Source: Eledone cirrhosa | Lineage: Eukaryota | Assembly (NCBI GenBank): GCA_964016885.1 | Contig: OZ024746.1 | Location: 88,536,001 to 88,600,000, forward strand | DNA: 64,000 bases | Direction: 5' to 3' | Part shown: piece after piece, positions 6,289-62,724 of the stretch | How positions within the stretch are numbered: position 1 is the first letter of the stretch | Layout of the letters: every line of letters starts with the position of its first letter | Program-made: the position numbers and the translations under genes | Notes under the pieces: generated by a model | What the model was told of the DNA's origin: nothing | The model's database searches: none | The model's input: only the letters and a program-made list of their open reading frames with translations

Positions 6289-6317
6289 TTGTGTGAAAAG
6301 AAATAATAATAAGAATA

Positions 6318-6507
6318 ATTGTTTCTACTTTTGGCACAAGGCCAGCAATTATCCCAGTGCATCACTGGTGCTTTATTTTATCGACCCCGTAAGGCTGAAA
6401 AGCAAAGTTAAACTCGGCATGATTTGAACTCAGACCATAAAGGGCCGTAACTCTATGCTGCAAATAATGGCATCCGACCCTCTACCGATACTTCCAATCC
6501 TCCGCCC
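6318..6507 (-). mobile_element. tRNA-derived SINE, short subfamily, full length
   Basis: Matches the 52536-52723 copy in reverse; inserted in (TAA)n. Confidence 0.9.
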
Positions 6508-6699
6508 TATAATAATAACAATACTAAGACTCGGACTCCCACTGAGTGGTCGCAGGACGGTTTAATGGCCCTGCGCGTATCCCAGATACGGTACTTGCAT
6601 GCCTGTAGAGTTTACCTTAAATTAGCAAATTTCATAGGCAAGGGGATCAATAGTATCAAGGAAACTGATCATGCACCTGGATTAAACAACAATCCATCG

Positions 6700-9422: not shown

Positions 9423-12400
9423 ATATTCATTATGCCCCATTGACATTCGGCAGCGCGGGATAACTCACTTAGAGCGTCGTCAAACATTGTCCCTACTATT
9501 ACAATTCTGGTACACATTGTTGAAATTGTTTTTGAACATCAATACGTTTCCAATAGAGAGACAAAATGTTAGTTACATTTCAGAACGGAATGTTTCTGAA
9601 TATAGGGCTCTCTGACTTTCGAAATGAGTTGACTGGTGCTGAACAAGCTGATTGACGCTCCAATGAGGACTGATAACATGCTCGCCACTTAGCAACGGAG
9701 TGTGCTTCTATTAGGTAAATCGAATAACATATCAGATGGAAATTAAAATAGACACGTTTTTAAACCGTTTAAAAACGGAGACCTACTGAATAATCGGGGT
9801 TTCAGAGATAATGCGCTTCATCCTTCTAATATATAATATCCTTATGCTACTCACTATCATCATCATTATGCTAATGTTTATACAATTTGTAACATTGTCG
9901 CATTTCCTATCCGCTTAAAGTTCTTAGTCTATAAAATATTCGTTTAAAGCATATTATCGTATACACAGCACATAATTCCTTGTCCCATGTCCTTCATGTT
10001 ACTGGTCCAAGTCCATAATCCATTCGTGGTAAATGAAACGTACGAACATCGAAATACTTAAATAACATATATACTTGACCAGTCGATACACGAACGTTAT
10101 GAGAGCAGACACGTTTTCATTTATTATTATAGATAAAGAAAGTTAGATTTCAGGTAATTTATATCAGTTATATACGAGGGAAATGGTTTGGGTAATATAA
10201 GTAAATTAATGTAATATTTACAAATGCATGTTAGGTGCTAACACGCCTGTGTAAAATCATTTCTTTCTTTGCATAGGAAATAAAACAAACAGGCTAATAA
10301 TATGCACCTTCATGTTATGGAGAAATATATTAGATTAAAACGAATACAATCTATGTTAATAATACTTTATATACATCGACTAACTTTGCCAAAGTCAAAC
10401 GTGTAGCTGGCTAGGTTTGAATGCATACTGATTACAATAATGTACTAAACCGTTTTCACACCTTTGTCTCTTTTTTGCCTTATCGTAGCTGAAATATGTT
10501 GATGTTGTTGCTTTTCTTATTAATATTTACGCCATATATAAATAGATATCGAATAATCAGTACGGAATTAAGCAAAGATGAATCAGTAAGAGTAATCAAT
10601 TCTCTAATGCAATGAAAGAAACGATAACAAAGGTATTATAACATGATTACGGCTTCCAAAGCTTTATCACAGAAATGTATAATTAATTTAGGAATATAAA
10701 GGCTAGAATTAAGTTATCTTCCTTCTACTGTGAATTAATTAATAGCTTAATCATAGAAATAATTATTAGATCTAAGGCCGATATTTCGATGTTTGAAGTC
10801 CGTCATGATAAACAGGGAAGAGAGCGAGATACCTAATTTAAAAGAATGTGTTTTGCAGCGAAATTTCAATTTTTTCGCTGTTGAAATTTACCTTTCTGGA
10901 ATAGATATAATGACTAACAAGCATATGTTGAAAATGAGGGAATCAGCTAGTATAGCCTCCACCTCATACTACATAGCCTTCTAGCGGTAAGGAAAATGCA
11001 AATTCTCGAGTAAATTAACGTTAGAGTTTCGGAAGTGTTATGATATTCCTATTGAAGTTGAATTAAGGAATCATGTGCAATCAATTAAGGACAGGACTGT
11101 CAACTCCATCCATTTTCCAAGCTAGAGACACTTATTTAAGAGGTCAACTATGAATGTCTAGGAGTTTGATAGTACTGCAAATATAAATTTCATTGTATTA
11201 ATGATATTGGATGGAGTTGCACAGGGCCAGATTGTGATTAGGCAATATATACATATTTAATATTTACCAGTAAAAGCCTTCAACAAAATACTACAACACA
11301 ACCAACCAAAGTCCATAATAATGCTCTCACCAACCTCTCTCATTCTTTCTCTCTCCATCTATTCACAACATAAACAACTGTGTAGACAATCAGACACAAA
11401 AATATCTTAACATCCAAATCAGACACCGGAACCTACTCATCTCAAAAATAATTTGAGAAGAAATCCTCAAACGTAAACTCTAAGACAAACACAAAGACAT
11501 CACACACATACACACACATGAAAAAAACGTCACTCCGCACACAACAATTAAATACACTTTCATAACAATGCAAACACATAACACGAAAATGACCAAAAAC
11601 TACCATTAATGCCAGCAACATGTCAGCAAAGATTAAAACGAAAACATGCGACGCAAATGCTTCCAATGCCAAGCTTGGAAGAAAGGTCAATGGTGGACTG
11701 ATATCATTTTATAAACGAAGTAACGAAATCAAGAAATATGGGGATTTCTTTGGCACCAGCACATTTAAATAGCCTGAATCTCTAATAACAGTAAAAATGT
11801 CGCACAGTGTCTAACCAGTTATTAAGGAAAAATGCGATTATAGTGAATAATTCCTATAACCTCGTCAACATATATAGTTTCACCCAGGTAACAGTACAAC
11901 AAGAAATGTAAGTAGATTTTATTAACATAATTTTAAAATCTGTATTTCTTTACAATTATGTTTTAATTTTTGCCAAAACGGCGACGATCTAGTATATGAA
12001 AGTATATTGGAGATGTAATATATTTTGAATGTTTGCCGCCATTTAACACTTGCGTATAGTGACATTATATGTCTATGACGTTCCATTAAACCTGACGTTA
12101 CAACTTGCTACAGACAACATATTCTGGCAGTAACTCTTTTACACTCATCATGAAACGAATGTTTCCACCCTTTCACTATGATTAATAAGCCTTCTAATGA
12201 ATTTAGAGAAACATTTGACTATCACTGTGCAACCACTTTATTTAGCAATTTCCAAATTGCACTTATCAAAGCTTACTGCATTAACAGAAACACTAGGCTA
12301 CAAACAAACAGGTATTACTGGTACATTACGTATGCACACTTGGTTAGCATTATTAGGTTGGTTTTGTACGATACAGGTTCAAATCCTAATTAATTGAGTA

Positions 12401-12456
12401 GCTAATTGTGAGTGAACAGAATTATACCGACTATTCCCTATAATCTCATCAATATA

Positions 12457-12517
<61 letters not shown>

Positions 12518-12557
12518 GATATTAAATAAATGGAAACTATATTTATAAAACCATATT

Positions 12558-12623
12558 TATTTCGTTATATATATTTCAGGGATATCATATTAACAATATG
12601 TTATGCCATCTTCAGACAAAATA
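12558..12623 (-). ncRNA. Type I minimal hammerhead ribozyme, intact core
   Basis: Minus strand reads UAUUUUGU-CUGAAGA-UGGCAUAACAUAUU GUU AAUAUGAUAUCCCU-GAAA-UAUAUA-UA-ACGAAAUA. This gives an 8-bp stem I, a long stem II and a palindromic stem III. Confidence 0.8.
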
Positions 12624-12693
12624 CAATATAAACAGTCTTATAAATAAATAGATACGACATACCTTTCAATCACCTTGCATTTGGGAGGTTGAT

Positions 12694-12743
12694 TTGCCAA
12701 GTCATGCTGACAGGAAATATTTCCTGTCAGCATGACTTGGCAA
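12694..12743. repeat. Perfect 50-bp palindrome
   Basis: ttgccaagtcatgctgacaggaaat|atttcctgtcagcatgacttggcaa. Confidence 0.95.
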
Positions 12744-12994
12744 TCTATTTAGAACACTGGTTTAACCGCTTTACTTCCCTCCGAAGAAGAGATATTATCT
12801 CGAAAATTAAGGACATTTAAATAAATCTAAGGTAAAAGACTAATTGTCAACAATATCTTTTGCATTAGCATTCTTTATTCTATGTCCATACCTGCATTTC
12901 TTTGGGTTTATTATACATATACAAACATTTATACCTCATTACACAATGCTTCAAGTGAACTATAACCTCCTCCATATATATATATATATTTATA

Positions 12995-13026
<32 letters not shown>

Positions 13027-13027
13027 C

Positions 13028-13111
<84 letters not shown>

Positions 13112-13214
13112 AGGATGTGAGTTTTATTTTTAGCACAATAACGCAATGCAAAGATATGTTGATTTACAACTTCACTATTCAGAAGTGTTTTTTAAGCTTC
13201 ATATCATGTATCCC

Positions 13215-13285
13215 TATTTTATCTGATGAGAACGCATATATCATCCCATGATGATAGTTGTTTTTGAAATGCGCATAATAAAATA
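13215..13285 (+). ncRNA. Type I minimal hammerhead ribozyme, intact core
   Basis: UAUUUUAU-CUGAUGA-stem II (inner UAUCAUC/GAUGAUA)-GAAA-UGCGCA-UA-AUAAAAUA. Stem I is 8 bp and stem III is the palindrome AUGCGCAU. A related copy lies at 23322-23390 (minus). Confidence 0.82.
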
Positions 13286-13422
13286 CTTGGGACTCTTTTA
13301 ACCATCTTTTGATCTTATATTATATAATATATATATATATGTATGTGTGTATGTGTTTGTGCATGTGTGAGTATAAATATATGTAAATACATGTGTATAT
13401 GTATATGGATATGTAAATGCAC

Positions 13423-13468
<46 letters not shown>

Positions 13469-14375
13469 TACACAATAATCAAAACTATGATCAAATCATT
13501 TTATTTCTGACAATCGTTTCTTCCAAACATTCGTTTGTTATCATCGGAGCACAAGCAAAATTCGGACATATAATTAACTTCATATTCAATTGAACAATCA
13601 TATAAATATATGGATATTAATGTTCTCTTCAACAGTTTCATATTTACAGAGTGGAATGGATGTGACAGAGATATAAAGAGAATTGTATAATAATTAAAAT
13701 GGTACAGAGTGGAATGCCCGCGACATAGATTACAAGGAAATAGTATAATAATTAAAGAGGCATTAAGGTAGAAAGTTACTCGTAAAACGAGGACACTAGC
13801 AGTACATATTGAAGCGTGTACAGAGTGCAAATGCGTTAGGCATATACAGGACAGCTAGGTAGGAAACAAGCAATGGTACAAGGCATATATAATTACTGTA
13901 TGGCAAAGGTATCACATAAAATAACAGGTTTACAAGCATATCAAGCAGGCAAATATGTTTGTATTTAACATTATGAATGTATGGTGGATGTAATGTGATA
14001 ATTGTTTCTGTTATGTTCAAGTGTGCATGAGTTGAGAGTATTAATATTATTGTGATATTTTCAATTACATTGGTTATATGTTATTTTAGTGAATGTTTTT
14101 AATTAGTTACAGCTATGGGTTGTATATTGGTCCTATTATACTGTTATCCAGGGTTCGAGTTGTTCTGGAGTGATTCTACACATGGTTAAATTTCAGGAAG
14201 TGAGATTGTCATCTATATTGAGGAGAGCTAATGTGAAAGGGAAGGTAATTAGCGATTAATTTGTATATGATAGAAAAAAATAGAAAATATGTATAGTTGT
14301 TTACAGCTCCAATTAGTTAAATTCCTTGTGCTAATATACATTATATTGTGTTACAAGTGAATCCCTTTTATATAA

Positions 14376-14563
14376 TTGTTTCTACTTTTGGCACAAGTCC
14401 AGCAATTATGTCAGTGTATTACTGGTACTTTATTTTATCGACCCCATAATGATAAAAGGCAAAGTTAACCTCGGCGAATTCGAACTCAGACCATAAAGGG
14501 CAGTAACTCTTTGCTGGAAGGCTTCGTGTCCGACCCACTACCGATACTGCCGAACCACCGCCC
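14376..14563 (-). mobile_element. tRNA-derived SINE inside the PLE 3' UTR
   Basis: Full-length reverse-complement match to the family consensus. Confidence 0.9.
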
Positions 14564-14637
14564 AATGCTATTTATTTATATTTAATTTTAAATACAATCT
14601 ATTTCCCTATAATACATTAAAGGTCTCATTATATTGT

Positions 14638-14680
14638 AATACACTGGGTAATTGCTGGCCTTGTGCCAAAAGTAGAAACA
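14638..14680 (+). mobile_element. Extremely 5'-truncated SINE (tail only) with 10-bp TSD
   Basis: aatacactgggtaattgctggccttgtgccaaaagtagaaaca flanked by attatattgt at 14628-14637 and 14681-14690. Confidence 0.85.
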
Positions 14681-15568
14681 ATTATATTGTTATGTATCCA
14701 TTACTGAATAAAATATGAGTAAGCTATAGAAAAAAATGTATAGTTGTTTACAGGTCCAATTAGCTAAATCTCTTGTGTTATTAATATACATTATATTATG
14801 GTATAAGGGAATCCCTCACATATAATGCTATTATGTTATATATTTAATTATGAATATAATTTACTTTTCTATAATACATTAAATGCCTCATTATATTATT
14901 ATCTACCCATTACTGAATATATTAAATGGTGGTAACTTTATGTTTATTCCTAATAGTTATTGCAGAGTATAAGCTTTGAGATGAATAGGAGTTAAGTAGA
15001 GGAATGAGCTTATCATAGCGTGTGATGCTGTGGGGGTAATTATATGCTGATAAGACCTAGAGCTGAAGTGTTAATGGTGATGAGGAATTCAGATCTGGCA
15101 TTGTTATATACTAGCAGCTAGGTTTAAAGTTATGCAAAGAGTGTCGGTGGTAGTGTTGGCACATGGAACAAATTTCTGATTTTCTATTTAAAAGGTCTAG
15201 TTTAGAATATATTATAGTGCGGGTCTCTAGAAGACGGAGGTTACACAATTTAATCGGTGGTTTATACGATACGGCCCTATCTATTATTTAAAGAAGTGGA
15301 GTTGGCTAGATTGCGATTTTTGAAAGTTTTGAGATGTGAGTTATATCTCGTCTTGAAGCAGGTCGATGTTGAACCGATATATGTTTTTGAAGAGTTGTTT
15401 GTGTTGACTGTGCATGAGTAAAACATTTCTTTGATTAAGCAAATTTATATATGTAAAAACATCTGATGTATTTAGATTGAGCTATTTTTTCTTAATGGTA
15501 ATAAGGTAGTAATGATTACTGATCTTTCATGTTTATAGTTGTATATAGTTTATATATATAACTAGAAA

Positions 15569-15642
<74 letters not shown>

Positions 15643-16061
15643 TATGTATTCGGAACGAAATCGATGCGTAGATGCACCAGCATATACTCGCTATTCAAAC
15701 AGAAACTGATCATATAGGCCGTCTTCCTTTCTTTCGATTCCACCTAATTACATAACTCTTTGGTATATAATCTCCCATGGATAACATCGCTATACATACC
15801 TTACATCAAACTATTTATACGGACACGTAATTTTAGATATTATAATTTTCGCTATGCGTAATGGTTTTCAATTATGTTTAAGTTTCTCTCTAACGGTATT
15901 TTACTTCTTAAAATATACTTTCTTACAAACTGCTTAAATTACTGGGCTATTCTTTAACCACACAACTCACCCTTTTTATCTCACTCATGCGTTGCATTCG
16001 CTATATATATGCTTCGTTATATTATATTTCAAAAGGATTCCGTAACTAAATTAATTGATCT

Positions 16062-16212
16062 AAATTCCTGAGGAAATGATGGAAAAATTGTTATGCCATA
16101 TAAATAATTAATTAATTGACTGCTTAATTAATTCCTTTGATTGGTAGTACATATATCCTTACATAATTGATTGTAGAAATAATTGATTGAAATTCCATAA
16201 CTGGAGTAGATT
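16062..16212 (+). ncRNA. Possible hammerhead with expanded stem II
   Basis: CTGAGGA at 16068, then GAAA-TTCCA-TAAC-TGGAG-TA at 16189-16208 (6-bp stem III, GUA site). Stem I is weak. Confidence 0.4.
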
Positions 16213-16440
16213 CCCTTAAGAATGTATTATCTACGCTTTTTGGTTTTTCTTTTGAAATTATTATTTACGCTCTGTGGATTTCGTCGTTTTTATCTACACG
16301 TATCATAACCCATTGGATTAGAAACCGGATATCATTGATTCGTGCATGTTTTTCTAATCGGAATAATGCTTTGAGAGCTTAAATTGTGTTCCAAAATTAC
16401 TACCCATTACTCCACTTCCATTTACGCTCTCTCACACTCT

Positions 16441-16726
<286 letters not shown>

Positions 16727-16836
16727 AGGTGTGTGTGTATGTGCGTGGATGTGTATTTTTAATATACGGATTTGAAAATGTTTGCATAAAAACGTAATGA
16801 TTGATTTAATAATAACATATTAATATAATAAAACAG

Positions 16837-16870
<34 letters not shown>

Positions 16871-17490
16871 AAATATTCAATAAAGCGAGGCATATTGTTT
16901 TAGGTTTTGAAATGGCTATAAAGCTCTTTCTTTGTTATTAATTTTACGTCTATGAACTACACAACTGGCAGTGTTGAAAACGTTTGAATGAACATTAAAT
17001 AAAATGGGAAGTAACATCAAAAGTGTTTCTAATATAAAAATGGCGTACGATACTTTTTGAGAAGAAAACTATAAAAAAAAGAATACATTTTCCTTTAAAT
17101 TTTAGAAAATGAAACTATTTAACTTATATAAGGGGAAATGGAAATGTTGTATCTAGATCTGGATGATATGTAATATTTAGTTCATATCTAGTCTTGTCAG
17201 CAAAATCTCAACATGTTCGCCTAGCCTAAGTCCAATATCCCATTGCCTACTATACATGGATGTAATACTAACTCTGAAACATACATATTCATAAACTGAT
17301 AGGTGCCTGTACGGGCCTATATATGCGCATGCCCTCGTATAGATATTTATTTATATTGACAGGCATTTTCATATGCATATATTCTCGTGTTAACTGGCTA
17401 TTCACAATTATGATTGACGGATGATGTTCACAAGTGTACTCTAATAAAAAGTGTTTTGGGCAATTGTGACTATTCGTTGAAACATTATTG

Positions 17491-17743
<253 letters not shown>

Positions 17744-17976
17744 ATTATTGCTTATATATATATGGACGCGTGCACACATATACATCTGTCCGCATACATG
17801 CAAACACCTAAGCGCTTATATAGATACACATATTTAGACACACACACACAGTCACGTACATATATCTACAGGATGTCACTAAAAAATCGACATCACTTCA
17901 CATATTCACACCTCAAATGATGTTCATTTTTAGGGGGATAACCTCTATACATGCTATATATATACATATAAGTATA

Positions 17977-18016
<40 letters not shown>

Positions 18017-18017
<1 letters not shown>

Positions 18018-18272
18018 TCAGCTCAAAAGTGACACAGAGGAGACTGAGGTTAGCTGGACATGCTCATCGACATCCAGAGTTGATATTGCACTCAGTGCTC
18101 CTTTGGGAGCCCCTACATGGACACACTACAAGAGGAAGGCCAAGGTTAACGTATGTTGATGCCCTAAGGACAGACACTGGTCTGTTGGAGACGCAGGACA
18201 TGGCAGCGATAATGAGGGACAGAGACCGCTGGAGAGAACTCGTCCAAGGATCTCGGGAGTTTTACCCGCCTT

Positions 18273-18274
<2 letters not shown>
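18017..18274 (+). mobile_element. RTE/RTEX-type LINE 3' fragment embedded in (TA)n
   Basis: QRRLRLAGHAHRHPELILHSVLLWEPLHGHTTRGRPRLTYVDALRTDTG...MRDRDRWRELV is the typical RTE-group C-terminus (L.W.GH..R, RGRP, DR..WR). Confidence 0.85.
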
Positions 18275-18357
<83 letters not shown>

Positions 18358-18521
18358 TATATATATATACTTCGTTGTCAAATATATCAATATGCCCAGA
18401 CATGCAGATATATTGCCCTTGCTATGACAGTGTGGTTTTAGCTCAATGTATGCTAACTAGTATACTACAGAGCCGTTATAGTTATAGGAATAACCAAAGA
18501 GTACTTTGAAATACATTGTAT

Positions 18522-18577
18522 TATTAGCTAACAGCGTTTCCTCCATACACCATGGCAGGAATCATCAGAGCCTATAA
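18522..18577 (-). ncRNA. Type I minimal hammerhead ribozyme, intact core
   Basis: Minus strand reads UUAUAGGCU-CUGAUGA-UUCCUGC CAUGGU GUAUGGAG-GAAA-CGCUG-UU-AGCUAAUAA. Stems I and II pair, stem III is minimal, and the cleavage triplet is GUU. Confidence 0.78.
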
Positions 18578-19071
18578 ACATGAGTATATTAGTCGTTGCA
18601 TGCTCCATCGTGATGCGTCACCAGAACAAGGTTAAAGGACGAGCAGGGTGTGTCCCAAGGCCAGCGCTATATGGAAAAAGACAGAATACATGATGTACAT
18701 AATGTCATTAAATATCTTAAAAATTAAAAAATTAAAAATTACACCAAAAGTTTATCACTTAAATGGTGCAATAGATGATAAAGTCGTTGGGAGAGGGTAG
18801 CAAGGCATGAGTGAGGGTATTACTCAGCATGATCAGAAACAATAAGAAAATAATAAAAAAATAATAAATAGTACAAGAATACAGGGATAAGAAAAGAGAT
18901 TAATATAAAAATACAAAACAATGAAGGAACAAAAAGCCCCGAAACCCCCAAAAGTATAAGACAAAGCAAAGCATAGATGCATCAAAGCACAAGCTGTGCA
19001 ACAAGAGGGTGTTCAGACAGATCAATATCAAGCTTGCAAACTCTCTTGATCTGCCTGTACACCCTCTTGAT

Positions 19072-19806
19072 GAGATGAGTTTCAAAGGATAAATATACAC
19101 ACCGAAAGTATATCTAAGTGAGATAAGAGATGAGAATAACGTGGAAGAAGAATATTTATAATGCAGGATTCATTACATTTTGATTATAATACTTATAATG
19201 ATAGGTTGAAAAATTATGACTTTGTATAAAATAACATATGGTTCATGTTTTAATTATATTTATAAGATAATAAAAAAAAAACTTTTAACTTCTTAACTTC
19301 ATAACATTTAATCATTAGAGTCATCTGAGTTCTTAAAAAAATCACTTCTAACTTCCTTTACAGTTCCTTACGGTTTTTATAATATAACTAACTGGTTATT
19401 CCTTTGTAAACTCTCGTATATTCTTCTTAAATTTGGATATTTTAATTTTTAAATTAAATTAAATTAAATTTTTGACTTACAACTTTTAATAAATAAACTA
19501 TACTAGATTTTCCCTAATATATTTATTTGAATAATTTATAATCCTTAACACACACATTTAAACTAATTATTAATATTAAATTATTAAATTAAATCTTTAA
19601 TATTAAGGTAAATTTTAATCTTTAATCTTTAATTTTGATTTCTAATTTTTTATATTTTAATTTTAATCTAATTTTTCAACCTATCATTATAAGTATTATA
19701 ATCATAAAGTAATGAATCTTGCATTATAAATATTATTCTTCCACGTTATTCTCATCTCTTCTCTCACTTAGCTATACTTACGCTGTGTATATTTGAAATT
19801 CATCTC
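19072..19806. repeat. Inverted duplication (~19072-19216 vs ~19669-19806) carrying an HHR remnant
   Basis: gagatgag...gaagaatatttataatgc...gataggttgaaaaatta is repeated in reverse complement. TGATGA...GAAA-GTATATC-TA at 19068-19116. Confidence 0.85.
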
Positions 19807-20214
19807 TTCTTGCACTCTATTTTCACTATCAATTCTTTCTTTCCTCTTCTATATTTCTCCTTTCTTTTTTCTTTTTTTCTTTTTTTCTTTTTTTCTTTTT
19901 TTCTTTTTTTCTTTTTTTCTTTTTTTCTTTTTTTCTTTTTTTCTTTTTTTCTTTTTTCTCTCCCTTACATATCACCTTCTTCCAGGTGTGTTTAGTGTGA
20001 GCGCGTGTATATATGTGCCGGTGGGTGTGTGCGTGTGATAGGGAGGGGGGAGGAGGAGAATAGGGGAGGGAAGGGATGTTAGTATGTTAGTTGGGGAAGG
20101 GTGGTCAGATGAGGGGTGCAGTGGAGGTGTTAGTATTTTTAGTTGTGGGGTGGGCGGTGAAAAGGAGGGGTGTGTTAGTGGGGGATAAGTGTGGGGGAGA
20201 GGGGGGGTCGAAGG

Positions 20215-20593
<379 letters not shown>

Positions 20594-21539
20594 TATATAT
20601 ATTATATATATATAAAGGTAAACGAGATGTTGTTTCCTCAGTTGAGGTTTAGAGTAATCTGTACCTAGCAGTGTTTCAGCGTACTGTCGTGTATATATAT
20701 ATATATATATATATGGGGGTGTGGGGGGTAGGTGCAGGCTGTTTGTATGTGTGTATATATATATATATTTATATACCCACACAACCCAACATATATTAAG
20801 CCTTTAGAAAACAAATGATACGTGCAGAAACTATGATATGTGTCGCTCAACCTCAACTAATATACACATACAGCAACGCGCCATATTTACGTTGTACATG
20901 CGTATATCTGTTGCCGCGTATATGTAGTATATAGGCCTGTTTAGCGGAAAATGTAATATTCCATATAAATAAATATTTAGATTTAATAATTAACCTTTTC
21001 AAAAATTACACTATTCCTTATATGTGGCTTTAAAATTAAAAATGTAGCGAATATTTAGCAAAATGATTTATATTTCCCCCTTTCGAAAAATCAACCTTAG
21101 CTACGACTAATTAATGTTTTTAAGGAATTAATAACATCATGGTATTTTTTATTTAATTTTATTCCATCTTATTGTATTTCCCTCTTCCTCCATAAATTAA
21201 ACATGATTTACATTGTAATTAAGAAACAAAATGAGATTACATGTTTTATCTGTTGCGATGGAAAGCTAATTAATTCTCAAAATGATTTTACAAAGAACAT
21301 TTCATCATTTCATTTACTGTCACCAACCATAATGATGATTCAAATATGCTTTGAATTAAGAATAAAATTAATAACTAAAGACACATAGTGTGGTATATTT
21401 AGCGAATGAAAATAATGTTTTAAAAATAGTCTAACAATGGAGGCTATGTATGTGATGGAATTCTGAAGAGATTCAATTACTACAATTAATTATTGTGCGA
21501 TAAGTACTGCATGTTCCATAGAAAAAACACTAGTAATAA

Positions 21540-21888
21540 CTGTTTCTACTTTAGGCACAAGGCCAGCAATTTCACAGTGCATTACTGGTACTTTATTTTA
21601 TCGACCCCGTAAGGATGAAAGGCAAAGTCAACCTCGGCGCGATTTGAACTCAGATCGTATAGGGACGTAACTATGCTGGGAAGCATGGTGGCTGACCCTC
21701 TACCGATACTGCTGGCCTTGTGCCAAAAGTAGAAACAATTATGTTGTCTAGCATAATTACGTCCCTTTACAGTCTGAGTTCAAATCTCGGCGAGGTTAAC
21801 TTTGCCTTTCATACTTACGGGGCCGATAAAATAAAGTACCAGTAATGTACTGGTTTATAGCTGGACTTGTGCCTAAAGTAGAAACAAT
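21540..21888. mobile_element. Cluster of SINE copies: minus copy fused to a plus tail, then a 5'-truncated plus copy
   Basis: 21540-21712 minus, 21710-21737 plus tail, ~21757-21888 plus. Confidence 0.88.
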
Positions 21889-22754
21889 TACGTAACATAA
21901 TTTGGCTTACTCCAGACTACGGTCCAGAATCTGAGAAAACTGGTGAGGGTATGCACTGGCACAATAAATCAAAAGTAGAGTTTGTGAGATGTCAAATATT
22001 TTAAATTGCTGTGGGGAGTAGTTTTCAGTTCCTTTTCTTCAACAGAAAGATAAAAAGATGGAGGAGTTGTCTGCTCATACTGCCAGTTAGGCAAACAATT
22101 GTCATTCCTAGCACATCGAATCAAACCTCAATGTTGTTCGCGTTGAAATATATAATTGATGGGGAACTCGATGATTTAGTATATGCTGTGGGGACATGTA
22201 CAATACCTCGACGGCAAATAAAATACAATATATTATCGACACTTAATAAACGTATAATTTTGTATCTGTTATCGATTATTTAATCTAATTATATCTTTTT
22301 TCATATAAACCATAAAAACGAACTTGCAAATTTGTTTTAAAAAGATTTTAAAATAATATAGTCGCACAGTAGCAGTAAAATTATAGCAATAAAATAATCT
22401 GTTATAGTCAAACGTTGCCTTGAAATGTGTAGACAATTTAGATTTGAAAACACCCGAATTTGACTACATGACAAATATCATTAAACCTAAAAGTATTTCT
22501 GTGTGTAATTATTCGTTTCTTTAGCCACACCTTAGAATCTTATGTATAGACATGTAGATGCATATTTTTTTTATGACTCTATATGGCATATGAGGCAACG
22601 AATATGCCATACAATCAAAAACAGAATCAACAGAAGGTTGTTCTGTCATCCGCATGAAAGATCTACGTTTAATTAAGTTCTATGTGAAATGTAATTACCC
22701 AGACAAACATCATATTCATTACGATATTTGCGTATTAATCGTCGTAGTTGTGGG

Positions 22755-22807
<53 letters not shown>

Positions 22808-22812
<5 letters not shown>

Positions 22813-23170
22813 CGGGTAAAATTCCCGAGATCCATGGACGAGTTCTCTCCAGCGGTCTCTGTCCCTCATTATCGCTGCCATGTCCTGCATCTCCAACAGA
22901 CCAGTGTCTGTCCTGAGGGCATCAACATACGTTAACCTTGGTCTTCCTCTTCTAGTGTGTCCATGTAAGGGCTCCCAAAGGAGTACTGAGTGCAATGTCA
23001 ACTATGGATGTCGGTGAGCATGTCCAGCTAACCTCAGTCTCCTCTGTGTCCCTTTTGAGCTGAGTTTTGGGATGCTCCCATACAGCTCTGAGTTTTTCAT
23101 CCTCAGTGTATACTGATTAATGTTCAGAGCCATCCTCAGCATTCTCGTGTAGCACCCATCCACCATCTGA
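22808..23170 (-). mobile_element. RTE/RTEX-type LINE 3' fragment, same family as 18017-18274
   Basis: VDGCYTRMLRMALNI...ELYGSIPKLSSK.TQRRLRLAGHAHRHP*...RGRPRLTYVD...REFYPP runs directly into (TA)n. Confidence 0.87.
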
Positions 23171-23189
23171 GTATATATATATATGTGTG

Positions 23190-24760
23190 TGTGGTAAGAG
23201 GTGAGTAATATTGTAGAACAATAAAAATATGCATACACCAGATAAGTAGCACTCGACAGTTTGTAGAACTGGAGTATATATAAAGAAGAAATTAAAATAA
23301 GGTTAAAAAAGTTCCATATATGCTATTATGCGCATTACGAAAACAACATCATCCTGGGAAAAAAATTGTGTTCTCATCAGATAAAATAAGGTAACATGAT
23401 ATGAGGCTTAAATACACTTGTGAACAAGAAAGTGTCCAGCCAGCATATGACAAAAATATAAGAGAAGAGAAAACATAATAGGAAAAATGAAGAAAAGGAA
23501 AGAAGGAAAAGGGAAAAAAGAAATAGAAGAGAGGAAAAAAGAAAGAAAGAAGGAGGAGAGAGAAAGAGAAGGAGAGAGAGAGAGAGATTTTTGATCAGGG
23601 AAAGCTGTCAAAAATTGAAAAAAAACAGCTGTGAATAAGGGCTAAAAAATGTAATAATAAAAATAAATAAATAAATAAACAAATTGATGAGGGGAATGTT
23701 CTAATATACAAAGATGTATAGAATAAAGAAACTGGGTATATCATTTAATATTGAGTTTGAATACTAAGAATTGGATTAAGAAGTGTAAAAATGCATTAAT
23801 AAAATAAAAATACAATAAAATAAAATAAAATAAAATAAAATAAAATAAAAATTAAATTCAAGATAATTATAATAATTATAAAAAAGGGAGCTTTTTAAAT
23901 AAAATATAGTAAAATACAAAAAAATAAAATAAAATAAGATAGACTAGAATAAAAATAAAAATAAGAATAGTCTATCTATGTCAAAATTAAAAATTACTAT
24001 TAAAATATATATATATTTGGGGTATAGTATTTGACTATTATTTTATGTCAACAAGTAAATAAAGGAAATTGCTAGAAAGGTTTATAAATGTAGAAAGACA
24101 TATGACGTCATAAATTGTTTACAAAATCTACGAAGGTTTGAGGGAATAAAATGTTACGTCAATAGAGAAAGAAGGTGAAAGGGTTAATAATGCAGAGAAA
24201 GGGGGATTAATACATTGTAGAATATAATGAAATATGTGAGAAAAAATGTGTGAAGAGATATATGTGTAAAAAATATATGTGTAAAAAATTAACCGATATT
24301 CGTAGAATAAGTAATAGGAAATTAGCGGTAATCTTTCTGAAAGGTCTTAAAAGATGTATGAATGCAGAGACCAAATAAGTCCGTACATCTATATATTAAA
24401 GAGTTGAAATTTGAGATAAATTTTTCAGCTATAAATATATTACAAACTCTAGGCATTGGAGTAAGGTGACGCGTTGCAAATTTTACGCCAAGAGATTTTG
24501 TAATTAATGTTGTTTGTCTTTTAAGGACCAAATAAGTTCTGAGAATGCGGTGCTGGTCCTTTTAAGTGGATATTTAAATGTAGTAGAATGGTTATAGAGT
24601 CTTTATTTAAAAGAAGTAGAGCATATGTAGGTATATGTATTGGTACCAGTTACCACTTTACATTCGTAAATTAAGTTTTTATCGAGACAGAAATTACTAA
24701 GAGGACCCCCCCCCCGGAAAAAACCCATTTGATGTATGTGAACCCGAAATATATAGGGAC
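23190..24760 (-). mobile_element. 5'-truncated PLE (GIY-YIG tail, pyrimidine-rich 3' UTR, HHR remnant)
   Basis: About 24700-24400 gives frameshifted CLDKK/LIYECKVVTGTNTYTYICSTS..RLYNHSTTFKYPLKRTSTAFSELIWSLKDK..VCNIFIAEKF. HHR CUGAUGA..GUAA-UGCGCA-UA at 23380-23327. Confidence 0.78.
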
Positions 24761-26124
24761 AATCAAATCTCTCCCAAGGTAACTCTATCTCGTGTTATTA
24801 TTTTTATTTTTATCCTTTACGCTCTTTCCTACATTCTTATACACGCTACAGTCTTCTACACGCCCCACACCTCAACGTACAACACTTACATCACTCTCTC
24901 CACCACCGGATCTTGTTACCAGCCTTCCAAACGACTTAAATAAATATACCTTATCATTCCACAATGCTTCAAGCAAACTTCAGTACTCTCATATATATAT
25001 GTAAAACAAAATTTAATGTAAAAAGGACTTCTACAGGACTAAAAATATTTCGTTCGAAGGAAAACATCAGGTTTTTTCTGAAAAACTTCTAGTCCCGTAG
25101 AAGTCATTTCTGTATTAAATTTGTTGTATACATTCAACTAATGCATTAGGTACCTTATTTACTGTGATTACCCCCAATTGAACACGGGAATTCCACAGAC
25201 ACAAACACACATATCATGCATTATATATACTAACAGAAAAACCACCCTCGGGTGGTTTCCTTCTGGCATGTGTAGTGTGTATATTGATATTATACACAAT
25301 TATATATGTATGTAGATATGATACATCAAATAAAATCGTAATTCACAATATACACAGAAATCAAACGAAGTCTATGGTACACTGTACTCTGTAATCAGTA
25401 AAGTAATCCATGATACATTTATAAAAAGACGATATTATATATGAACTGCATTAGGAGAACATTAGCGACGGAAATATATGAGATATTTTTATAAGTGTTA
25501 TAATATAACGGCCACTAAAGGGATATGTTGACATTTTAAAATGTTAAAGAAGTGAATCTTTAAATAAGCTATAAAATCTATTTAAACAACAGCAACGAAA
25601 TTTAGCACATAAATTATGCAATATGCATTCATTATTTATTCAAAGTAATCAAACTTATTTTACAAACGGGGTAAACATATATATGCATGTATGTATATAT
25701 ATTTACATACTACTGTACGTCTGTATACATATATGTATGTACGTATACATACTTATATTTAAGTAACAGCCGTACTAAGAGTGAGAAATGAAATTTCGTT
25801 TCATTTCTTCCGTTTATATATATATATATATGTTCAAATCGTAAGGTATCAGATTCGCTAAGGTGAAGAAAATACTAACTATTGACAATAGGGTTTGCCA
25901 GATTCAATTTAAGAATACATCAAGAAAGTAAATACAAACAGGAATTGTGGTAACAACCAATCACCCAGTCAGCATTTGACTATGCTGTTTCGCAAATTAA
26001 TTGTGAAGAGGATCACCATTTCTGGCACATCAGTGGGTGAACAATTAGTAAGTGCCTCACTTCTAAGTATATCAGAAAACTGAATAGTGTGCGTATATAT
26101 AATAATGCACTTGGTATCAGAACT

Positions 26125-26774: not shown

Positions 26775-29700
26775 CTAGCAGATGTACCCGGCTTTGCCCG
26801 GTATAACTCTCAATGGAGTAATCGTTCAAATGAAGCGAATGACTTCCGTTAAACACGACTATAGAAGTAACAATGTATATGTGTTGGCCCTAAAGATTGC
26901 CTTTGAACGTCCACTTTGAAATATCTCTGCAGCTGTTCTGCCAGCAAAATGAATCCGATGGTAACAATTTAAAGGTGGTGGCCCTGAAGAGGGCCTTGGA
27001 TTGTTCACTCTTAAAAGTCCCAGCGGCAGAGCTGTCAGCAAAGACGACTCCGATTAGAGGTGGTGGCCTTGAAGAAGTCCTTCACACGACTTTGGTGTAT
27101 CATATTTGCTTTGCTTGTTATTTTAGATTGTACCCTAGAAAAGCATGTAACAGTCGGTGGCCACAAAAATGGCCTTGGCAAGATCACGCTGGAATGTAAA
27201 AAAAATGTGTAAATAAGATGTACGGAATATTTATAACGTATAGCAAAAGCAACCTCAGAGGCGTACGTGGTATTGTCAAATGGACAAAAATAGCACACGG
27301 ATACAGCAAATGTAAGCACTTATGCAAAAGAAAAAAAACGATTAATTTTTGGTGGATAAGATGTCTACAAAACTTCCTTATAGACTTTAATTTGGGTTTC
27401 TCGCGAGTTGAAAAAGAAAATAGGTTATGTCGGCTCCCCACTCGAGAGCAACCAAATTATAGTGTATAAGGAAGTTTTGTAGACATCTTATCCACCAAAA
27501 ATTAATCGCTTTTTTTCTTTTGCATAAGTGCTTACATTTGCTGTATCCGTGTGCTATTTTTGTCCATTTGACAATACCACGTCGACATCATATGATGTTT
27601 CATGTATAATGCCGTTTGGAATGTCGGATGGCGCATCTCGAAGTCTTTGCGGAAGCCCATATTTCTCCAAGACATCTCCGCCCATTGAAGCCACTCTGTC
27701 TTCAATATCCATCAGAGCTCTGTTATATATAGCGTCTGAAAAGCCGAAATCTAAGTTTGGAGATTGCAATTGAGCGAGACACTTATATTCGTCTACGAAA
27801 TCATCTTTAAACTTTTGCCATAAAGAGTAAGGATCGCTGAATTCACAGACGTGCAAGAGGATAGCAAAAATTGCCCTTAGACTACGGGAAGGTTGTGAAA
27901 TTGCAGCTTCCGTCAAGGTTGCATCCCATTGTGCGTCATCTTCTAAAAGTCCACGCTTCAAGCAGGCTTACCTGTACCTTCTGCAGGCGTATCCATCGAC
28001 GGTTCTCAGATGAGTGAAGCAGGTCGGCCCTCTTACCTCATGAAGCAGAAGTCGCAGGTAGAAGCATTCGTGTTGGGTAGCGTGGAACGTATAAACTCGC
28101 CCAGGGCAATTGTCGAATTTCCTTTGTAGCCATTTTTTTCTGGTTCCATGTATAGTAAGACGATATATCAGTATACAGCAGAGTTCGAGCGAAGTCGTCG
28201 TGTTGACACAGTTTGAACAAAGCGGCGAGTATTTTCCTTTTGGCGAGATCGTTAGCTGAGCAGCTGTTGCATCGTTTAAATACACCCGTTGACAGTTTTC
28301 AAGGTGAACGGCAAGTTGTTTAATGACAGGTTGTCGTTGGTGAAATGGGAAGCCAACAATGCTCCAAAATGCTTCATTGCTGCTAATATATCGGCCTGCT
28401 TGGTAATCAGATACCTCGCCTCTACTGTTTTCATGACGAAGACCAAAGACCGCAGCATCCGATCCCTTGTTTACGTACTTACAAACGTATTTTATTGATT
28501 TTACTGAGTTGCAAAATTCGACGCTTTCAAGAGGATGGGGCAATATTGCACTATCCAGCTGTTGTCGATTTCGAGTTCGCCATCATCTTCAGGTCTCCTA
28601 CGCCTATAAAATGGATATCCGTCACCGCCAGTCTGTGTTTCCTGCAAAAATGGCCTGCGATATCGTTTTGTATACTTTCCGTCGTGTATGCAAGGGGACG
28701 TCATATTGAGTCCATGTCTGCAAGGATCATGGACCATGTTTGATGTGACTATAGAGAAAAGGTCCTTGTCAATCGACGGATCAGGTAGTTCGGCAGAAAT
28801 GAATTTGTCGGTGTAGTTTGAACAGATTTTTGGAACCAACCAAATCAAGATATGGGCAGGGGGCAGCCATCGTTTCTGCTATGCAACCCCAAAACCTGTC
28901 CTTTCTTTAATAAATCTATTAATTTGGATAATTTCAGGCGAAACCCTTGCTATGAGATCGTGCCTGTGTTTTGGTGTTTGACTGTGGAACAGTTCGTTTG
29001 TAATCTCCTTCCACTTGGGATTGCATGAAAAGGTTATGAAAATGTCGGGCGCCCATAATGTCGTACGTATGTCATGGCGTCCTGATTCCTCTCGTGCATG
29101 TATCTTGTTTCCCCTGTGAACGTTGTAGGCAAAATACACACTTGCCTTAAAATGTTTGGGGATACGTCGTTGTTAATTCCATCGCGTAGATGAATGCAGC
29201 ATTCAGATCGAAGTTTCTTTTGATTTAATTTAATGAACCATTATCTCTCGGACTCCATTTTAACGGCCATATCAACAGCAAATTGTTGGAAAAGGTCCCG
29301 AGAACGGTGTAGATGGTTGAATGAATTGTCCTTTACCATGAATCGGAAAGTGTAGAAATTCATGCAGGTGACAGTTTTGCTAAGATGTGCCTCACCATTG
29401 CCTGCTGAATGTTGAGGAATGCCAAAATGGTATCCGTCCTCGCCGTTGACAAATAGCAATGGATAATGGAGTGCATCGAAGGACCTGTGTGTCTCATTGA
29501 TACGCTGTAATGTGCTGTCTCGATGCTTTAGAATGATATCTACTCGTTGTGCTGTTCACCACAAATAACCGCAGCAATCTCATTACAAGTTGATGCCTTG
29601 AACCTACCAGCGTGTTCTCCAGATGGCCGTCGGCCAGCATGTATGGCCACACTAAAGTTTGGGTCGGTGGCTGTTTCCAATGCGTACTTGAAACTGCGAA

Positions 29701-30572
29701 CATAGCTGTTTTTATCATGAAGTATTTCTTGAGGTTTTATTATGGTTTCAATGTTAGTTTCGGACGAAATAGAGTTTCGCATCTCTGCCTGCTCCTGATA
29801 GATTCCAACGAAGTATAACTGAATAAATTGAGGATCCTTTTCTGCCAGAGACAGAATGGATCCAATCAAGTGGTAGATCAGCCCCTGTACCTTGAAAGTT
29901 GGCATGAACCCACGTTCCGATGCAAGCTTTGCTCCGAAGGAAACTTCGATGATTCCTCCGTCGTGTCTGTGAAAAGGAGTTGCAATGTCTCCGGGGGGAT
30001 CGTAAATGGGAGGTAGACTAACTTTACCGTTTGAACAGCACATTCCATATCTCTCCCCTGGCCACTTTTACGTATGACAAAACTAGCAAGTACAGGTCAT
30101 TTGCCCAATTTGAATATCTGCATGGACGGCGTAGTCGGAGAAGGGGTCATAGTTGAAGCCCTTCAACAACCATCGTGAATTGTAAGTCCTAGAAATGCCA
30201 CGTAACGATGACCGTCGCTGTTTATTTTGCAGAAGTCGGCCACGTCGCTGCTCTATTGTTTCAGCAGTGGCGGCGTCCCTCCTTCGTCGAAAGGCACATT
30301 GTCATTCATCCTCTCGAGCGCGAGCATCAGTAGTCACGGCAGCATCTTTGTTCCGTCGAAGTTAAAGCCGACTGTCATCCTCCTCCGCTCTTGCAGCTGC
30401 CGTCTGCACAGCATTGTGAGAACCTGATCGCAGTCGCATTTACATCTTCGGTGAGACGCCTTCGCTTTGACCTACTTGCATCATTAGATAATCGACCAAT
30501 GAAAGTTCTTTTCTTGGGGGTATTGTTTTTTAGAAAATTAACCAATGAGAACCATAAATAGTGGACAAACAA
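26775..30572 (-). mobile_element. Decayed autonomous-type Helitron (RepHel pseudogene; helicase domain missing; 5' end unresolved, possibly ~31.3-32 kb)
   Basis: Fragmented ORFs give MCCSNGKVSLP, FMPTFKVQGLIYHLIGS, LFVNGEDGY, FQQFAVDMAVKMESER, PDIFITFSCNPKWKEI, a broken HUH motif (QKR.LP/AHILIW at ~28870-28840), SIKYVCKYVNKGSD, RYISSNEAFW, LAVHLEN, ECFYLRLLL and GLLEDDAQW. The 3' end is a GC hairpin plus CTAG|T at 26778-26775. Confidence 0.93.
27265..27582. mobile_element. Foldback/MITE-like element (arms ~27265-27408 and ~27440-27582) inside the Helitron
   Basis: acgtggtattgtcaaatggac...aaacttccttata is repeated in reverse complement. The same peptide appears in the ORF track on both strands. 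Left flank TA, right flank TC. Confidence 0.85.
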
Positions 30573-35613: not shown

Positions 35614-36520
35614 TATTGAAGTTTCCGTTACCATAATCCAAATGAAAATTTAAAATATATAAATAAAGGATCTTGCCATCCTCCCATCGATTTTAAAAAT
35701 CTCATCTCCAAGATTAACAGTAGGATCTTCACCCTCTCTTCCTCAGAACCGATTTTCAATAAGGCACCCACCTACCATAATAAACCCATTCAACATAGCG
35801 GATTTAGTGAACCGATTAATTAAATACCCAACAATACTAACTCCTTAAACATAATAATAGTAAAAGAAAAATAATCTGCTTCACACCCCTCTACTCTTTA
35901 GCAGTTAAAACTAATGTAGGCAAAAAATCCCTAGAACTTTAGATAAAGATTTCCCTAGAACACATAGATACTATAGGATCTTCAATAGAAACTGTGTCAA
36001 AATCAGCTACTCCTTCGGTCCCTCTATTAAATTTTATATCTTAATAAGAAAACACCCAGAGAACATCACAATTGCTCCTGTAGAGTCAAAAGTAAATGCC
36101 CATCACAAGGTAAATACAGGACCAAAGCCATTGTATATGAGGCGAAAGTGACAAACACCAGCAACAACCTACGAGCCACCAGCGAACGATATGTGGGTAT
36201 GACACAAGATAAATTCCAAACGCGTTATTACTCACGTGTCGCATCTTTCCGATATCCGGAAAAAAGATTTACAACAGCTCTGTCTAGCAGAATATGCGAC
36301 TTGAAGGACCAAGGTATCCAATATGAATTAGATTGGTCAATTTTGAACCAATCTAAAGAATATTCAAGAGGAACAAGAAGATGCGCACTCTGCATAAGTG
36401 AAAAGTATTGGATTTCACAGAATCTTAATCACCAAAAACTTGCCTAAATGCAAAAGCAGAAATGTTCAGCAGTTGCCCACACATGAAATCACTCTTGCTT
36501 TCCGGCTCATAAACTTAATT
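35612..36520 (+). mobile_element. 5'-truncated Hydra-type PLE (thumb/linker plus GIY-YIG), starting at (TA)n
   Basis: YINKGSCHPP..SSSEPIF..KRKIICFTPLYSLAVKTNVGKK..RIFNRNCVKISYS..CSCRVKSKCPSQG..IVYEAKV..RYVGMTQDKFQTRY..CALCISEK, with frameshifts. Confidence 0.88.
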
Positions 36521-38234: not shown

Positions 38235-39090
38235 TATATTTGGTGTGTGTGCGAAGGTCTAAATTAATGTCTAAGAAATCTACGCTAGAGAGGTTGGTAG
38301 CTACTCTTATCTTAAGTCCTAACTCATTGAAGGTACAAGCTAAGTCTTTGTTTAAACCCGTCGAGGTCGTGACCAATTTTATGGCTCGATAATGACTGTC
38401 CGTCGTCGCGGTATATTCCCGTGTGGAAATCCGGGAATCTAACACGTAATATATCTAACATAAATAAGCCAACCAACGTCAGCACTGTCAAACCATCCCA
38501 AGGAGACGGCGTATAGGTCTGAAGTTGTTGACTTCTTTGCTCAGGCTGTGCGATGATTTCCCTGTCTAAACCATCGACGGTTGTGTAAGTGGTAGCGAAG
38601 TCCAACGTTTTGTTTAAAAGAGTCTCTGAGATTGACGGGTAAAAATCAACAATGTCGAACTCTGTGAACTTCGCTTTTGGGGATTTGAAGGAGTTGAAAC
38701 ACTTAATTACGAAGTCGCTGTTCTCCCACTGGGACAGGTTGGACTTGGTCCTAATGGTCTTAACTATGTTTCTGAGTATGGCCTTACTGACTAGTCCCAT
38801 ATCTGTGCGTGCCGGATTTATTACTCTACATGCGGGGTTAGAAGTAAAGTCTACCTTGTGATCTTTCAAGTGAGTAACGCCTCCCGCTTAGCTAGAGATT
38901 GTAGCTTCTTATCTACCTTAAGGGCGGCGGCAAGTTTTTTGGTTTCTGTATTAATGTCGTGGTAGGCCATAGGGTTAGCTGTCTTATATTTGGAAGTAAT
39001 ACGGTTATGGGCCAGGTTCGGAAAGTGGTGTTGTCGACTTCGTAATTATTATTAGTTTTGTCGGAAAGAATGAAAGTGTTATTAGAGGAC
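38235..39090 (-). mobile_element. PLE reverse transcriptase segment (inverted part of the 38.2-40.0 kb element)
   Basis: SDKTNNNY..LKDHKVDFTSNPACRVINPARTDMG..QWENS..FDIVDFYPSISE..GIYRDDG..VDFLDINLDL. Confidence 0.9.
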
Positions 39091-40211
<1,121 letters not shown>

Positions 40212-40385
40212 GGTGTATTATTGGTTGTGTCAAACGGTCCAATAAATTTTTATCTGCAATGTAAAGTTCTGCACGCTTTTGTATATCTCCAATTCCATTT
40301 ATGGGAACAGATAGATGATGTAAAACGGAGTATTTGTATCAAAATAAAGATCCTAAGTCATGGTATACATTTCCACTCATTTTAA

Positions 40386-61439: not shown

Positions 61440-62700
61440 ATTTTGACCATAACCGTGGTTCTGTCTTTGCGTGTAATTGTTCTCATCGTTCCACATAACG
61501 ACGTATTATGTTGGCTTTTTTCCGTTAATTGCCAGGGAACGTCTTCACGCACCAAAGTATCGTCTTCCTGTTTTCCTGCGTTCACAGATTGATTGATTTT
61601 TTTAGTTTCAGAAGATCCCGTTAAGGGTGAAAGCAGCGATTATTTGCTTAAACTTTAATCTGTTATTTAAAAAAAATATTTGCTCTAGGGTTCTTATATA
61701 TTTGATATATATTTATCCTTATTGGTCCCTCTTTGGATTTTAGTCTTCAAATTTATTATTGTTGACATTTGGCTCCCTTGGTTCAGTACTCTATTGACAT
61801 ATATTCATCTTACAGAAACGACCCCTGAAGATTTCTACAAAGAACATACCTGTACCTAGCAGGAAGATATATCTAAAACTTCTGATACAGAAAACCGATT
61901 CGTTCCTTAAAAGGTTGCGTTGGATGTGCCTTTTATTTCGATAACCAGGAAAAAGCGGACAATAAACAGGATAAATTTGCGTTTACAACTTATAATAACC
62001 CTCCGCGTAACCCAGCATTCTACGGTTCGAAAACGATGTATTGTAACTCATACGGATTATCAAATTTCGGAATAGGAACAATTCCTTCCAGCAGGACCTG
62101 AAGAAAAGAATTCGTTCTATTAAGGATGCTAATGCCGTGCACGTCCACTCCGACAAAGCTGGCAATCTATATCAAGTGGAGCTCAGTATTTACTATCAAC
62201 TGCTACATAATGCTGTAACTAAGGATTACGGAAAACCAATCGGACTGTCAATAACGACATCAACGATGCTGGATTTAAAATGACTTCTGAACTCAACATC
62301 CAGGACCGGACTGAAACTCTGAAACCCTCTTTCTCACCACTTTACCATAAAGGATCACAAACCCAATTTCGCCAACAACGCCTCTTTTCGGTTAATTAAA
62401 CCTACGAAGTCTGATTTAGGTAGATTTAGTAAAAGGATTTTAGATAAAATGATACCTGAAATTAGAAGCTTGGCCCCTCTTACACTGTGGAATAATTATT
62501 TCGCGGTGATTGATTGGTTCAATGGCATATGCAAGAAGGAACATTGCGGTTTTATCCAATTCCACGTCAATAATTACTACTCATCCATCACTTTACCACT
62601 TCTTCTTAGAGATATCAATTTCGTTAAAACGCTGACAGTATTTAAGGATTTCGAAGTTGATGTCATGCTTAATGCCCCTAAGTAGGTGATTAATGTCGAC
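61440..62700 (+). mobile_element. 5' portion of a Hydra-type PLE: terminal repeat with HHR, N-terminus and RT up to the first conserved motif
   Basis: STKNIPVPSRKIYLKLLIQKTDSFLKRLRW (~61834)..HSDKAGNLYQV..TIKDHKPNFANNASFRLIKPTKSDLGRFSKRILDK..VIDWF..FIQFHVNNYYSSI. An inverted partial copy of the repeat lies upstream at 60960-61085. Confidence 0.87.
61604..61654 (+). ncRNA. Hammerhead-like fold with CAGAAGA (U4A) core
   Basis: AGUUU-CAGAAGA-UCCC GUUAA GGGU-GAAA-GCAG CGAUUAU UUGC-UU-AAACU. All three stems pair. Confidence 0.6.
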
Positions 62701-62724
62701 GACTCTGTTTGCATAAAACAATAT

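Follow-up and report, generated by a model that had tools for sequence, protein, structure and literature searches.

The four hammerhead ribozyme motifs described here, A to D, are probably the terminal 100 to 250 nt of four families of Penelope-like retroelements (PLEs), likely left as 5'-truncated insertions into TA repeats. They lie in a 64,000-nt stretch of contig OZ024746.1 of Eledone cirrhosa, which was analyzed as a whole and is called the window below. The published anatomy of Hydra PLEs and the solo PLE hammerheads reported from animals make 5'-truncated PLE ends the likely identity of A to D. Counting for it are the number of motifs above chance, their orientation toward (TA)n, the abundance of modules A and B, the structure-sparing variation in A, the fold-back of B, the PLE remnants in the window with Hydra-clade marks, and the layout of a decayed element that contains the motif at 39848. 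Counting against it are an approximately 16-fold fall in depth over module A, which is steeper than expected from random truncation, the absence of ORF remnants beside A to D, a stem III of 8 or 4 nt, the near-chance standing of D, the decay between C and its second copy, a clustering that TA density explains only partly, and a Hydra-clade assignment made from motifs.

Hammerhead motifs and their orientation to (TA)n tracts

The window is animal-type DNA, AT-rich with a GC content of 0.26 to 0.44, and contains mobile-element ORF remnants and 75 tandem-repeat rows, many of which are (TA)n. The locus begins with a (TA)n tract (12452..12522) at the 3' end of module A (12525..12698, minus strand), which runs leftward. 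Module B (12719..12973, plus strand) runs rightward and reaches a tract of (TA)n followed by (TG)n (12974..13111). Module C (13154..13326, plus strand) also runs rightward and converges with the leftward motif D (13507..13549, minus strand) on a (TA)n/(TATATG)n tract (13327..13465). The tracts were taken from the tandem-repeat listing, supplemented by the sequence itself for the second and by the TA-distance analysis for the third. Modules A and B were delimited by DNA contigs aligned to the locus and module C by self-comparison of the window. Two 58-bp tandem copies at 13645-13756, upstream of motif D, are unexplained.

By their core (CUGANGA, GAAA, UH), A and C are intact type I hammerhead motifs, and B and D carry U4C. 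Hammerhead A (12560..12621, minus strand; fold and relaxed descriptor) has C3 at 12615, an intact type I core and a predicted cut after 12566. Its stem II of 11 pairs has U10.1.U11.1 (U.U) at the base, its stem III is an 8-nt (AU)4 palindrome, and its flanks form an imperfect inverted repeat (12540-12646) able to extend stem I. Hammerhead B (12778..12812, plus strand; descriptors and contigs) is of the minimal type, with C3 at 12781, a predicted cut after 12809, an extra A before G10.1-C11.1, a 5-bp stem II, a 3-bp stem I and a stem III palindrome of 4 nt. Hammerhead C (13215..13285, plus strand; descriptors) has C3 at 13223, an intact type I core, a predicted cut after 13277, an 8-bp stem I, a G.U at the base of stem II and an 8-nt stem III palindrome. 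Motif D (minus strand; fold and relaxed descriptor) has C3 at 13547, a predicted cut at 13509 and an 8-nt palindrome with a G.U. Descriptor and fold gave A, B and C three stems around the core, with the ends in stem I; stem I of D has only 2 bp.

A strict hammerhead descriptor, which missed A and D, matched three times in the window, and all 30 shuffles were free of matches. With a relaxed descriptor, which was loosened after motifs A to D had been seen, six matches scored at least 22, compared with a mean of 0.08 in 60 shuffles, and ten scored at least 15, compared with 1.4 in shuffled windows. The two highest scores in the window were those of A (36) and C (34.5); B (18) and D (16) were weaker. 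One match in the higher group, 35985 (35934-35995, minus strand), carries C3U and falls on the antisense strand of a coding region for a PLE linker; it is probably a chance or false match. The shuffles therefore understate false matches, and this null is optimistic. Across the window, Rfam gave no match at the gathering score, and its 66 weak matches in 11500-20000 included no hammerhead.

It is extremely improbable that AT-rich, low-complexity DNA produced the motifs by chance. The false-looking match at 35985, the post hoc loosening of the descriptor, the (AT)4 sequence of stem III in A and the fact that the score level of D is reached 1.4 times per shuffled window all favor chance, but the excess at scores of at least 22, the strand-specific nearness of (TA)n, the structure-sparing variation in A and the canonical U4 in part of family B speak against it. 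Chance was rejected for A, B and C. Motif D alone is near chance and not clearly above shuffles; it is likely a decayed hammerhead.

The predicted cuts of A, B, C and D precede the downstream (TA)n by 44 to 55, 165, 50 and 44 nt, respectively, the distance for A being 55 nt, or 44 nt to the edge in the tandem-repeat listing. Seven of the ten descriptor matches have (TA)n within 200 nt downstream, against 0.116 expected, and one of the ten has it upstream. Outside the A-D cluster, the downstream proportion was 3/6 (P about 0.02). The clustering of A to D, a cluster chosen after the fact, had a P value of 0.006 when TA-anchored and 0.003 under uniform placement; TA density accounts for the clustering only partly. 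The modules are mutually unrelated, all six pairwise scores falling inside the range of 200 shuffles.

Much of the original prediction was borne out by these results. It had placed four hammerheads at these positions and strands, and all were found, with an intact core in A and C and U4C in B and D. Its further statements, that the stem sequences are unrelated and that each motif points toward a nearby (TA)n tract, agree with the values given above, and motif density was higher than in shuffled sequence. It also listed nine other sites, with mixed success: 1726, 18568, 23380 and 61609 were recovered by the descriptor and 39848, 40455 and 51135 are plausible by hand, whereas 16068 and 19068 are doubtful. 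The doubtful motif at 19068 is contained in a 148-bp inverted pair with a 74-bp palindrome (18999-19216). Many hammerhead-like copies in the window carry core lesions, as seen with the relaxed descriptor.

Repeat families of modules A, B and C

Family depth was taken from contigs aligned to 12523-12973, which spans A and B; they came from two DNA runs on a single sample. The two runs gave 4794 and 4063 contig records, most of them at least 95% alike. Summed depth in run X22, which is not a copy number, was 0.9 to 3.1 million over 12523-12634, where the AT-rich first 50 nt of the aligned region attract stray matches. It was 55,000 at 12651-12666, a drop of approximately 16-fold between 12634 and 12666 with a step at about 12645, and 31 in the junction bin 12699-12714. 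Most of the depth of module A thus lies in 12525-12650, and a minority of copies reach about 12698 with related sequence. Module B had a summed depth (X22, again not a copy number) of 0.13 to 0.45 million over 12731-12970. The high depth over both A and B, together with the value of 31 at their junction, indicates two separate abundant repeats with a rare junction.

A and B meet 5' to 5' with no TA in between. A perfect 50-bp palindrome (12694..12743), a 25-nt fold-back of the module B 5' end, abuts the 5' end of module A. Opposite-strand joints in B were found in three contigs; no inverted 5' copy or fold-back of A or C was seen. Judged from its sequence, the A|B junction could have arisen in a single event that used two templates, or through two insertions plus a deletion.

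Variable sites inside motif A preserved the core and pairs in 5/5 cases (P of 0.002 to 0.013, depending on transition weight, with 29 to 42% of possible changes being sparing). They comprise N7, the most variable, where two alternative letters occur, the two positions of an A.A mismatch in stem II, and two substitutions that convert pairs of stems I and III to G.U. No two-sided change in A was readable from the contig variation tables. The sole variable site in motif B restores canonical U4, at 14 to 16% of contig depth. Module C has a second copy in the window at 23277-23448 (minus strand), 77% alike over 175 columns. The palindrome is identical in the two hammerheads, C and the 23380 motif; G10.1-C11.1 is replaced by G.U in one of them, the other has A13U, and no two-sided change was seen between them. 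These differences reflect decay from an intact parent. Dispersed multi-copy status was seen for A and B in the contigs and for C from its second window copy. The 1726 motif was considered as a member of family C and rejected by sequence comparison.

In 82 and 72 contigs, the 3' tail and stem III of A are shared, but the sequence diverges in stem II at 12578. Since these contigs leave A with another stem II, they represent sister subfamilies that share the tail. A scan of metagenome contigs with the family A pattern gave 18 loci; BLAST showed no similarity to A for any of them, and they were judged to be chance matches. No locus was found in viral contigs. The family C pattern gave no match in metagenome contigs.

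The absence of an adjoining ORF makes it possible that some modules, A above all, are short non-autonomous elements copied in trans by PLE proteins into (TA)n. Module A would then be an element of about 125 nt whose hammerhead is closed by its own long stem I. The depth step at about 12645 coincides with the end of the imperfect inverted repeat, the depth of A is very high, and the sister subfamilies retain its 3' tail and stem III. Such PLE derivatives are also known: MRC1, in the available part of PMC8557442, is a non-autonomous PLE derivative, and more are given in the available part of 10.64898/2026.07.22.740005. However, a minority of A copies run on past the step with related sequence, a strong hairpin or subfamily divergence could yield the same step, and the fixed 5' end and promoter of A are putative. 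We consider this account possible but unlikely, and return to 5'-truncated PLE ends as the preferred one.

PLE remnants and other repeats in the window

PLE-type RT and endonuclease remnants were found in at least six places in the window. RT-like pieces lie at 35629-35835, 38254-39095 and 61810-62718. An endonuclease profile built from 150 relatives of the 39239 piece located remnants at 1116-1424, 15111-15441, 24452-24704, 36040-36515 and 39086-39678. A full HMMER search with the 39239 piece gave 2894 relatives, and a word-index search gave none. The GIY-YIG piece at 20236-20454 matches P0001 (PF01541). Pfam named GIY-YIG for P0001 only, one of three protein matches, and gave no name for the RT proteins and nothing useful for eight endonuclease relatives or for eight ORF pieces of the window; a PDB search with P0002 gave no match. 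The 20236-20454 piece belongs to a region (19669-20454, minus strand) that represents the GIY-YIG end of a different kind of PLE; it is truncated on its 5' side at (TA)n, and an (A7G)n tract breaks its 3' region.

Between 1440 and 15111, nothing was found with the endonuclease profile, and nothing above noise with RT queries. Because no ORF remnant adjoins A to D, their parent elements remain inferred. Two further links were weighed, one between motif D and the endonuclease remnant at 15111-15441 and one between the 1726 motif and the fold-back remnant at 1116-1440; neither is claimed, on account of distance and orientation. A long fold-back palindrome at 1174-1440 is made of a PLE endonuclease end.

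Among the ORF remnants, DKT lies near 39070 and CxCx5C near 36075. The remnants at 35629-36515, 38236-39678 and 61810-62718, not A to D themselves, carry the Hydra-clade marks (DKT, RWK-like, CxCx5C and a C-terminal endonuclease). Their assignment to the Hydra clade rests on motifs, not on a tree, and is a putative one.

Linkage of a hammerhead-like motif to a PLE ORF was found in the window at 39848 and 61609, not at A to D. At 38236..39980, profile and translation identified a decayed PLE with an inverted RT piece (38236-39095, minus strand) and an endonuclease end (39086-39678, plus strand), followed by the hammerhead-like motif 39848, in which A9 is changed, and then by a 3' end at (TA)n 39981. 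An intact-core motif at 40375-40468 (minus strand), with long stems I and II and a fold of -23 kcal/mol, carries G or additional bases where the cut would fall and converges with 39848 on the tract 39981-40208. The variant at 61609 lies about 200 nt upstream of the decayed PLE RT ORF 61810-62718 (61604..62718, plus strand), and an inverted copy that ends in (TA)n lies upstream.

The 61609 motif (plus strand) belongs to a four-copy hammerhead-variant family with 51135 (plus strand), 61083 (minus strand) and 60487 (minus strand). Three copies have U4A, and the family has a stem II of 3 bp with a basal U.U, U at position 17, and a 5-bp stem III with a 7-nt loop that could fold as a monomer. The copies end at (TA)n, and one precedes the PLE RT ORF. 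Two two-sided changes were counted in the family, a number equalled by 38/500 shuffles and not significant. A literature search on U4A hammerheads gave nothing relevant.

Several other repeats share the window. A dispersed, SINE-like repeat of about 190 nt occurs at 6316-6511 and in more than ten other places, 80 to 90% alike, and some copies are in fold-backs (21537-21890). ARAGORN detected no tRNA in it; it may resemble an octopus SINE. Frameshifted ORF pieces at 27554-30067 (minus strand) resemble a Helitron replication/helicase gene; Pfam gave no name for the one piece scanned. A 318-bp fold-back lies at 27265-27582, and further long fold-back palindromes lie at 42111-42444, 48154-48268 and 25009-25122. 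A 312-bp repeat, present at 18015-18326 and 22755-23066 as mutually inverted copies that are 95% alike and end in (TA)n, may correspond to the 3'-terminal part of a LINE ORF.

Relation to known hammerhead systems, mechanism and activity

The locus resembles Hydra-clade PLEs with a C-terminal endonuclease (Craig et al. 2021) in its (TA)n targets, a hammerhead 30 to 150 nt from the 3' end, the U after A9 and before G12 (U.U, found in many families), the stem III palindrome and the presence of inverted as well as 5'-truncated copies; the ORF remnants of the window share the DKT and CxCx5C marks. In the parts of PMC8557442 available to us, section 11 describes DKT, RWK-like and CxCx5C marks, hammerheads and (TA)n insertion in Hydra PLEs. 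By hand count, Files S1 and S2 give a (TA)n target in 26 of 27 Hydra families, and the supplement gives U.U at the stem II base in 14 of 25 listed motifs. The same parts place the cut site at most 200 nt from the 3' end (29 to 152 nt) in 23 of 24 families, with one family that has a 5'-end motif omitted, and show a stem III of mostly 9 to 10 nt in the published Hydra rows. In contrast to these elements, A to D have no adjoining ORF, B and D carry U4C, stem III of A to D has 8 or 4 nt without a loop, and in A stem II is longer and stem I can be extended. Both U10.1.U11.1 and U4C are listed as natural variants in the available part of PMC3088659, U4C with lower activity.

The minimal hammerheads of metazoan PLEs (Cervera and De la Pena 2014; PMC4209133) are likewise solo, heterogeneous, family-structured and numerous. 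As far as the available text of that paper goes, there are thousands per animal genome, mostly solo and in many heterogeneous families, with opposite-strand pairs 100 to 700 bp apart and with inactive monomers and weak dimers. B shares the additional nucleotide that separates 9 from 10.1, the G10.1-C11.1 pair and the shortness of the palindrome, and the locus shares opposite-strand pairs and a predicted dimer dependence. Unlike these hammerheads, A, C and D have longer palindromes, and the A|B pair comes from two unrelated families; no statement on (TA)n was met in that part of the paper. A and D appear to resemble the Hydra-clade type and B the minimal type.

Non-LTR retrozymes (Cervera and De la Pena 2020; Li et al. 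2026) are alike in being type I hammerhead repeats that lack ORFs and are related to PLE ends, and the modules could be monomers of such elements, whose tandem repeats of 150 to 450 nt give circular RNAs. Short ORF-less repeats with type I hammerheads fit this reading; solo monomers of retrozyme families are in print (10.64898/2026.07.22.740005), and an axolotl retrozyme also has U.U at the stem II base (PMC7229834), according to the available parts of these papers. Retrozymes are, however, defined by tandem units and circular RNA, and these same parts treat them as tandem. The window has no hammerhead-bearing tandem array, and no head-to-tail joint was found among the 4794 and 4063 contigs on A and B, although short contigs can hide one. 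The consistent 3' ends at (TA)n fit PLE anatomy, and retrozyme monomers are highly improbable here. The original attribution to PLE or retrozyme-like families at (TA)n was partly right: distinct, (TA)n-oriented and here ORF-less families of PLE type were seen, and retrozyme-type tandem organization was not.

If A to D are PLE ends, a PLE GIY-YIG endonuclease would cut (TA)n, and reverse transcription would be primed some tens of nucleotides downstream of the hammerhead and would usually stop early. The hammerhead-bearing end alone would then be inserted, at times with a fold-back of its own 5' end. TA tracts may be reused, and such reuse would produce clusters of motifs. Within the parent element, two copies of the hammerhead would pair via their stem III palindromes and cleave tandem transcripts as a homodimer. 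The available part of PMC11167929 describes the cut of a PLE hammerhead as protein-assisted and dispensable for insertion in vitro.

The solo copies A to D themselves are most likely decaying fossils with no matching partner in cis. Stem III pairing among A to D was complete in 4/4 self pairings and 0/12 mixed pairings, which ruled out heterodimers among them. Closure of stem III inside the monomer is predicted to cost 2.5 to 3.5 kcal/mol for A and C. As A and D lie on one strand and B and C on the other, a transcript spanning the locus carries no matching pair, and activity at the locus would be unlikely unless partners came in trans. Self-cleavage at A to D is thus predicted to be unlikely without trans partners. 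Two runs presumed to be RNA gave 8 and 10 short AT-rich matches, nearly all less than 90% alike, which speak neither for nor against expression. The active self-cleaving RNA layer envisaged earlier is unsupported at this locus, as A to D are predicted to be unable to pair mutually and many window copies have core lesions.

A combined reading would make A a very abundant non-autonomous element of about 125 nt, A|B a chimeric insertion, and dimer partners available in trans. The A element would have a swappable stem II and a conserved 3' tail and would hijack (TA)n-targeting PLE proteins. A|B would be a single head-to-head insertion copied from two unrelated RNA templates, each primed on a different strand of one TA tract, and transcripts of the many genomic copies could supply the dimer partners. 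We regard this combination as decidedly unlikely and retain 5'-truncated PLE ends as the probable identity of A to D.

A to D are new members of a described class, PLE-type hammerhead ends at (TA)n. The novelty initially attributed to dense PLE hammerheads does not hold, since a massive, diverse set of solo motifs is described in the available part of PMC4209133 and (TA)n-targeting Hydra PLEs with hammerheads in that of PMC8557442. Many Penelope families are reported from an octopus genome in PMC13282606, the available part of which does not mention ribozymes. A literature search for cephalopod hammerheads found no catalogue, although one may nonetheless have been published; this species may lack a genome-wide catalogue. 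Through their hammerheads, short unannotated repeats beside TA tracts here can be read as PLE ends. The matter would grow in importance if family A were a stand-alone short element, or if solo copies cut host pre-mRNA with trans partners.
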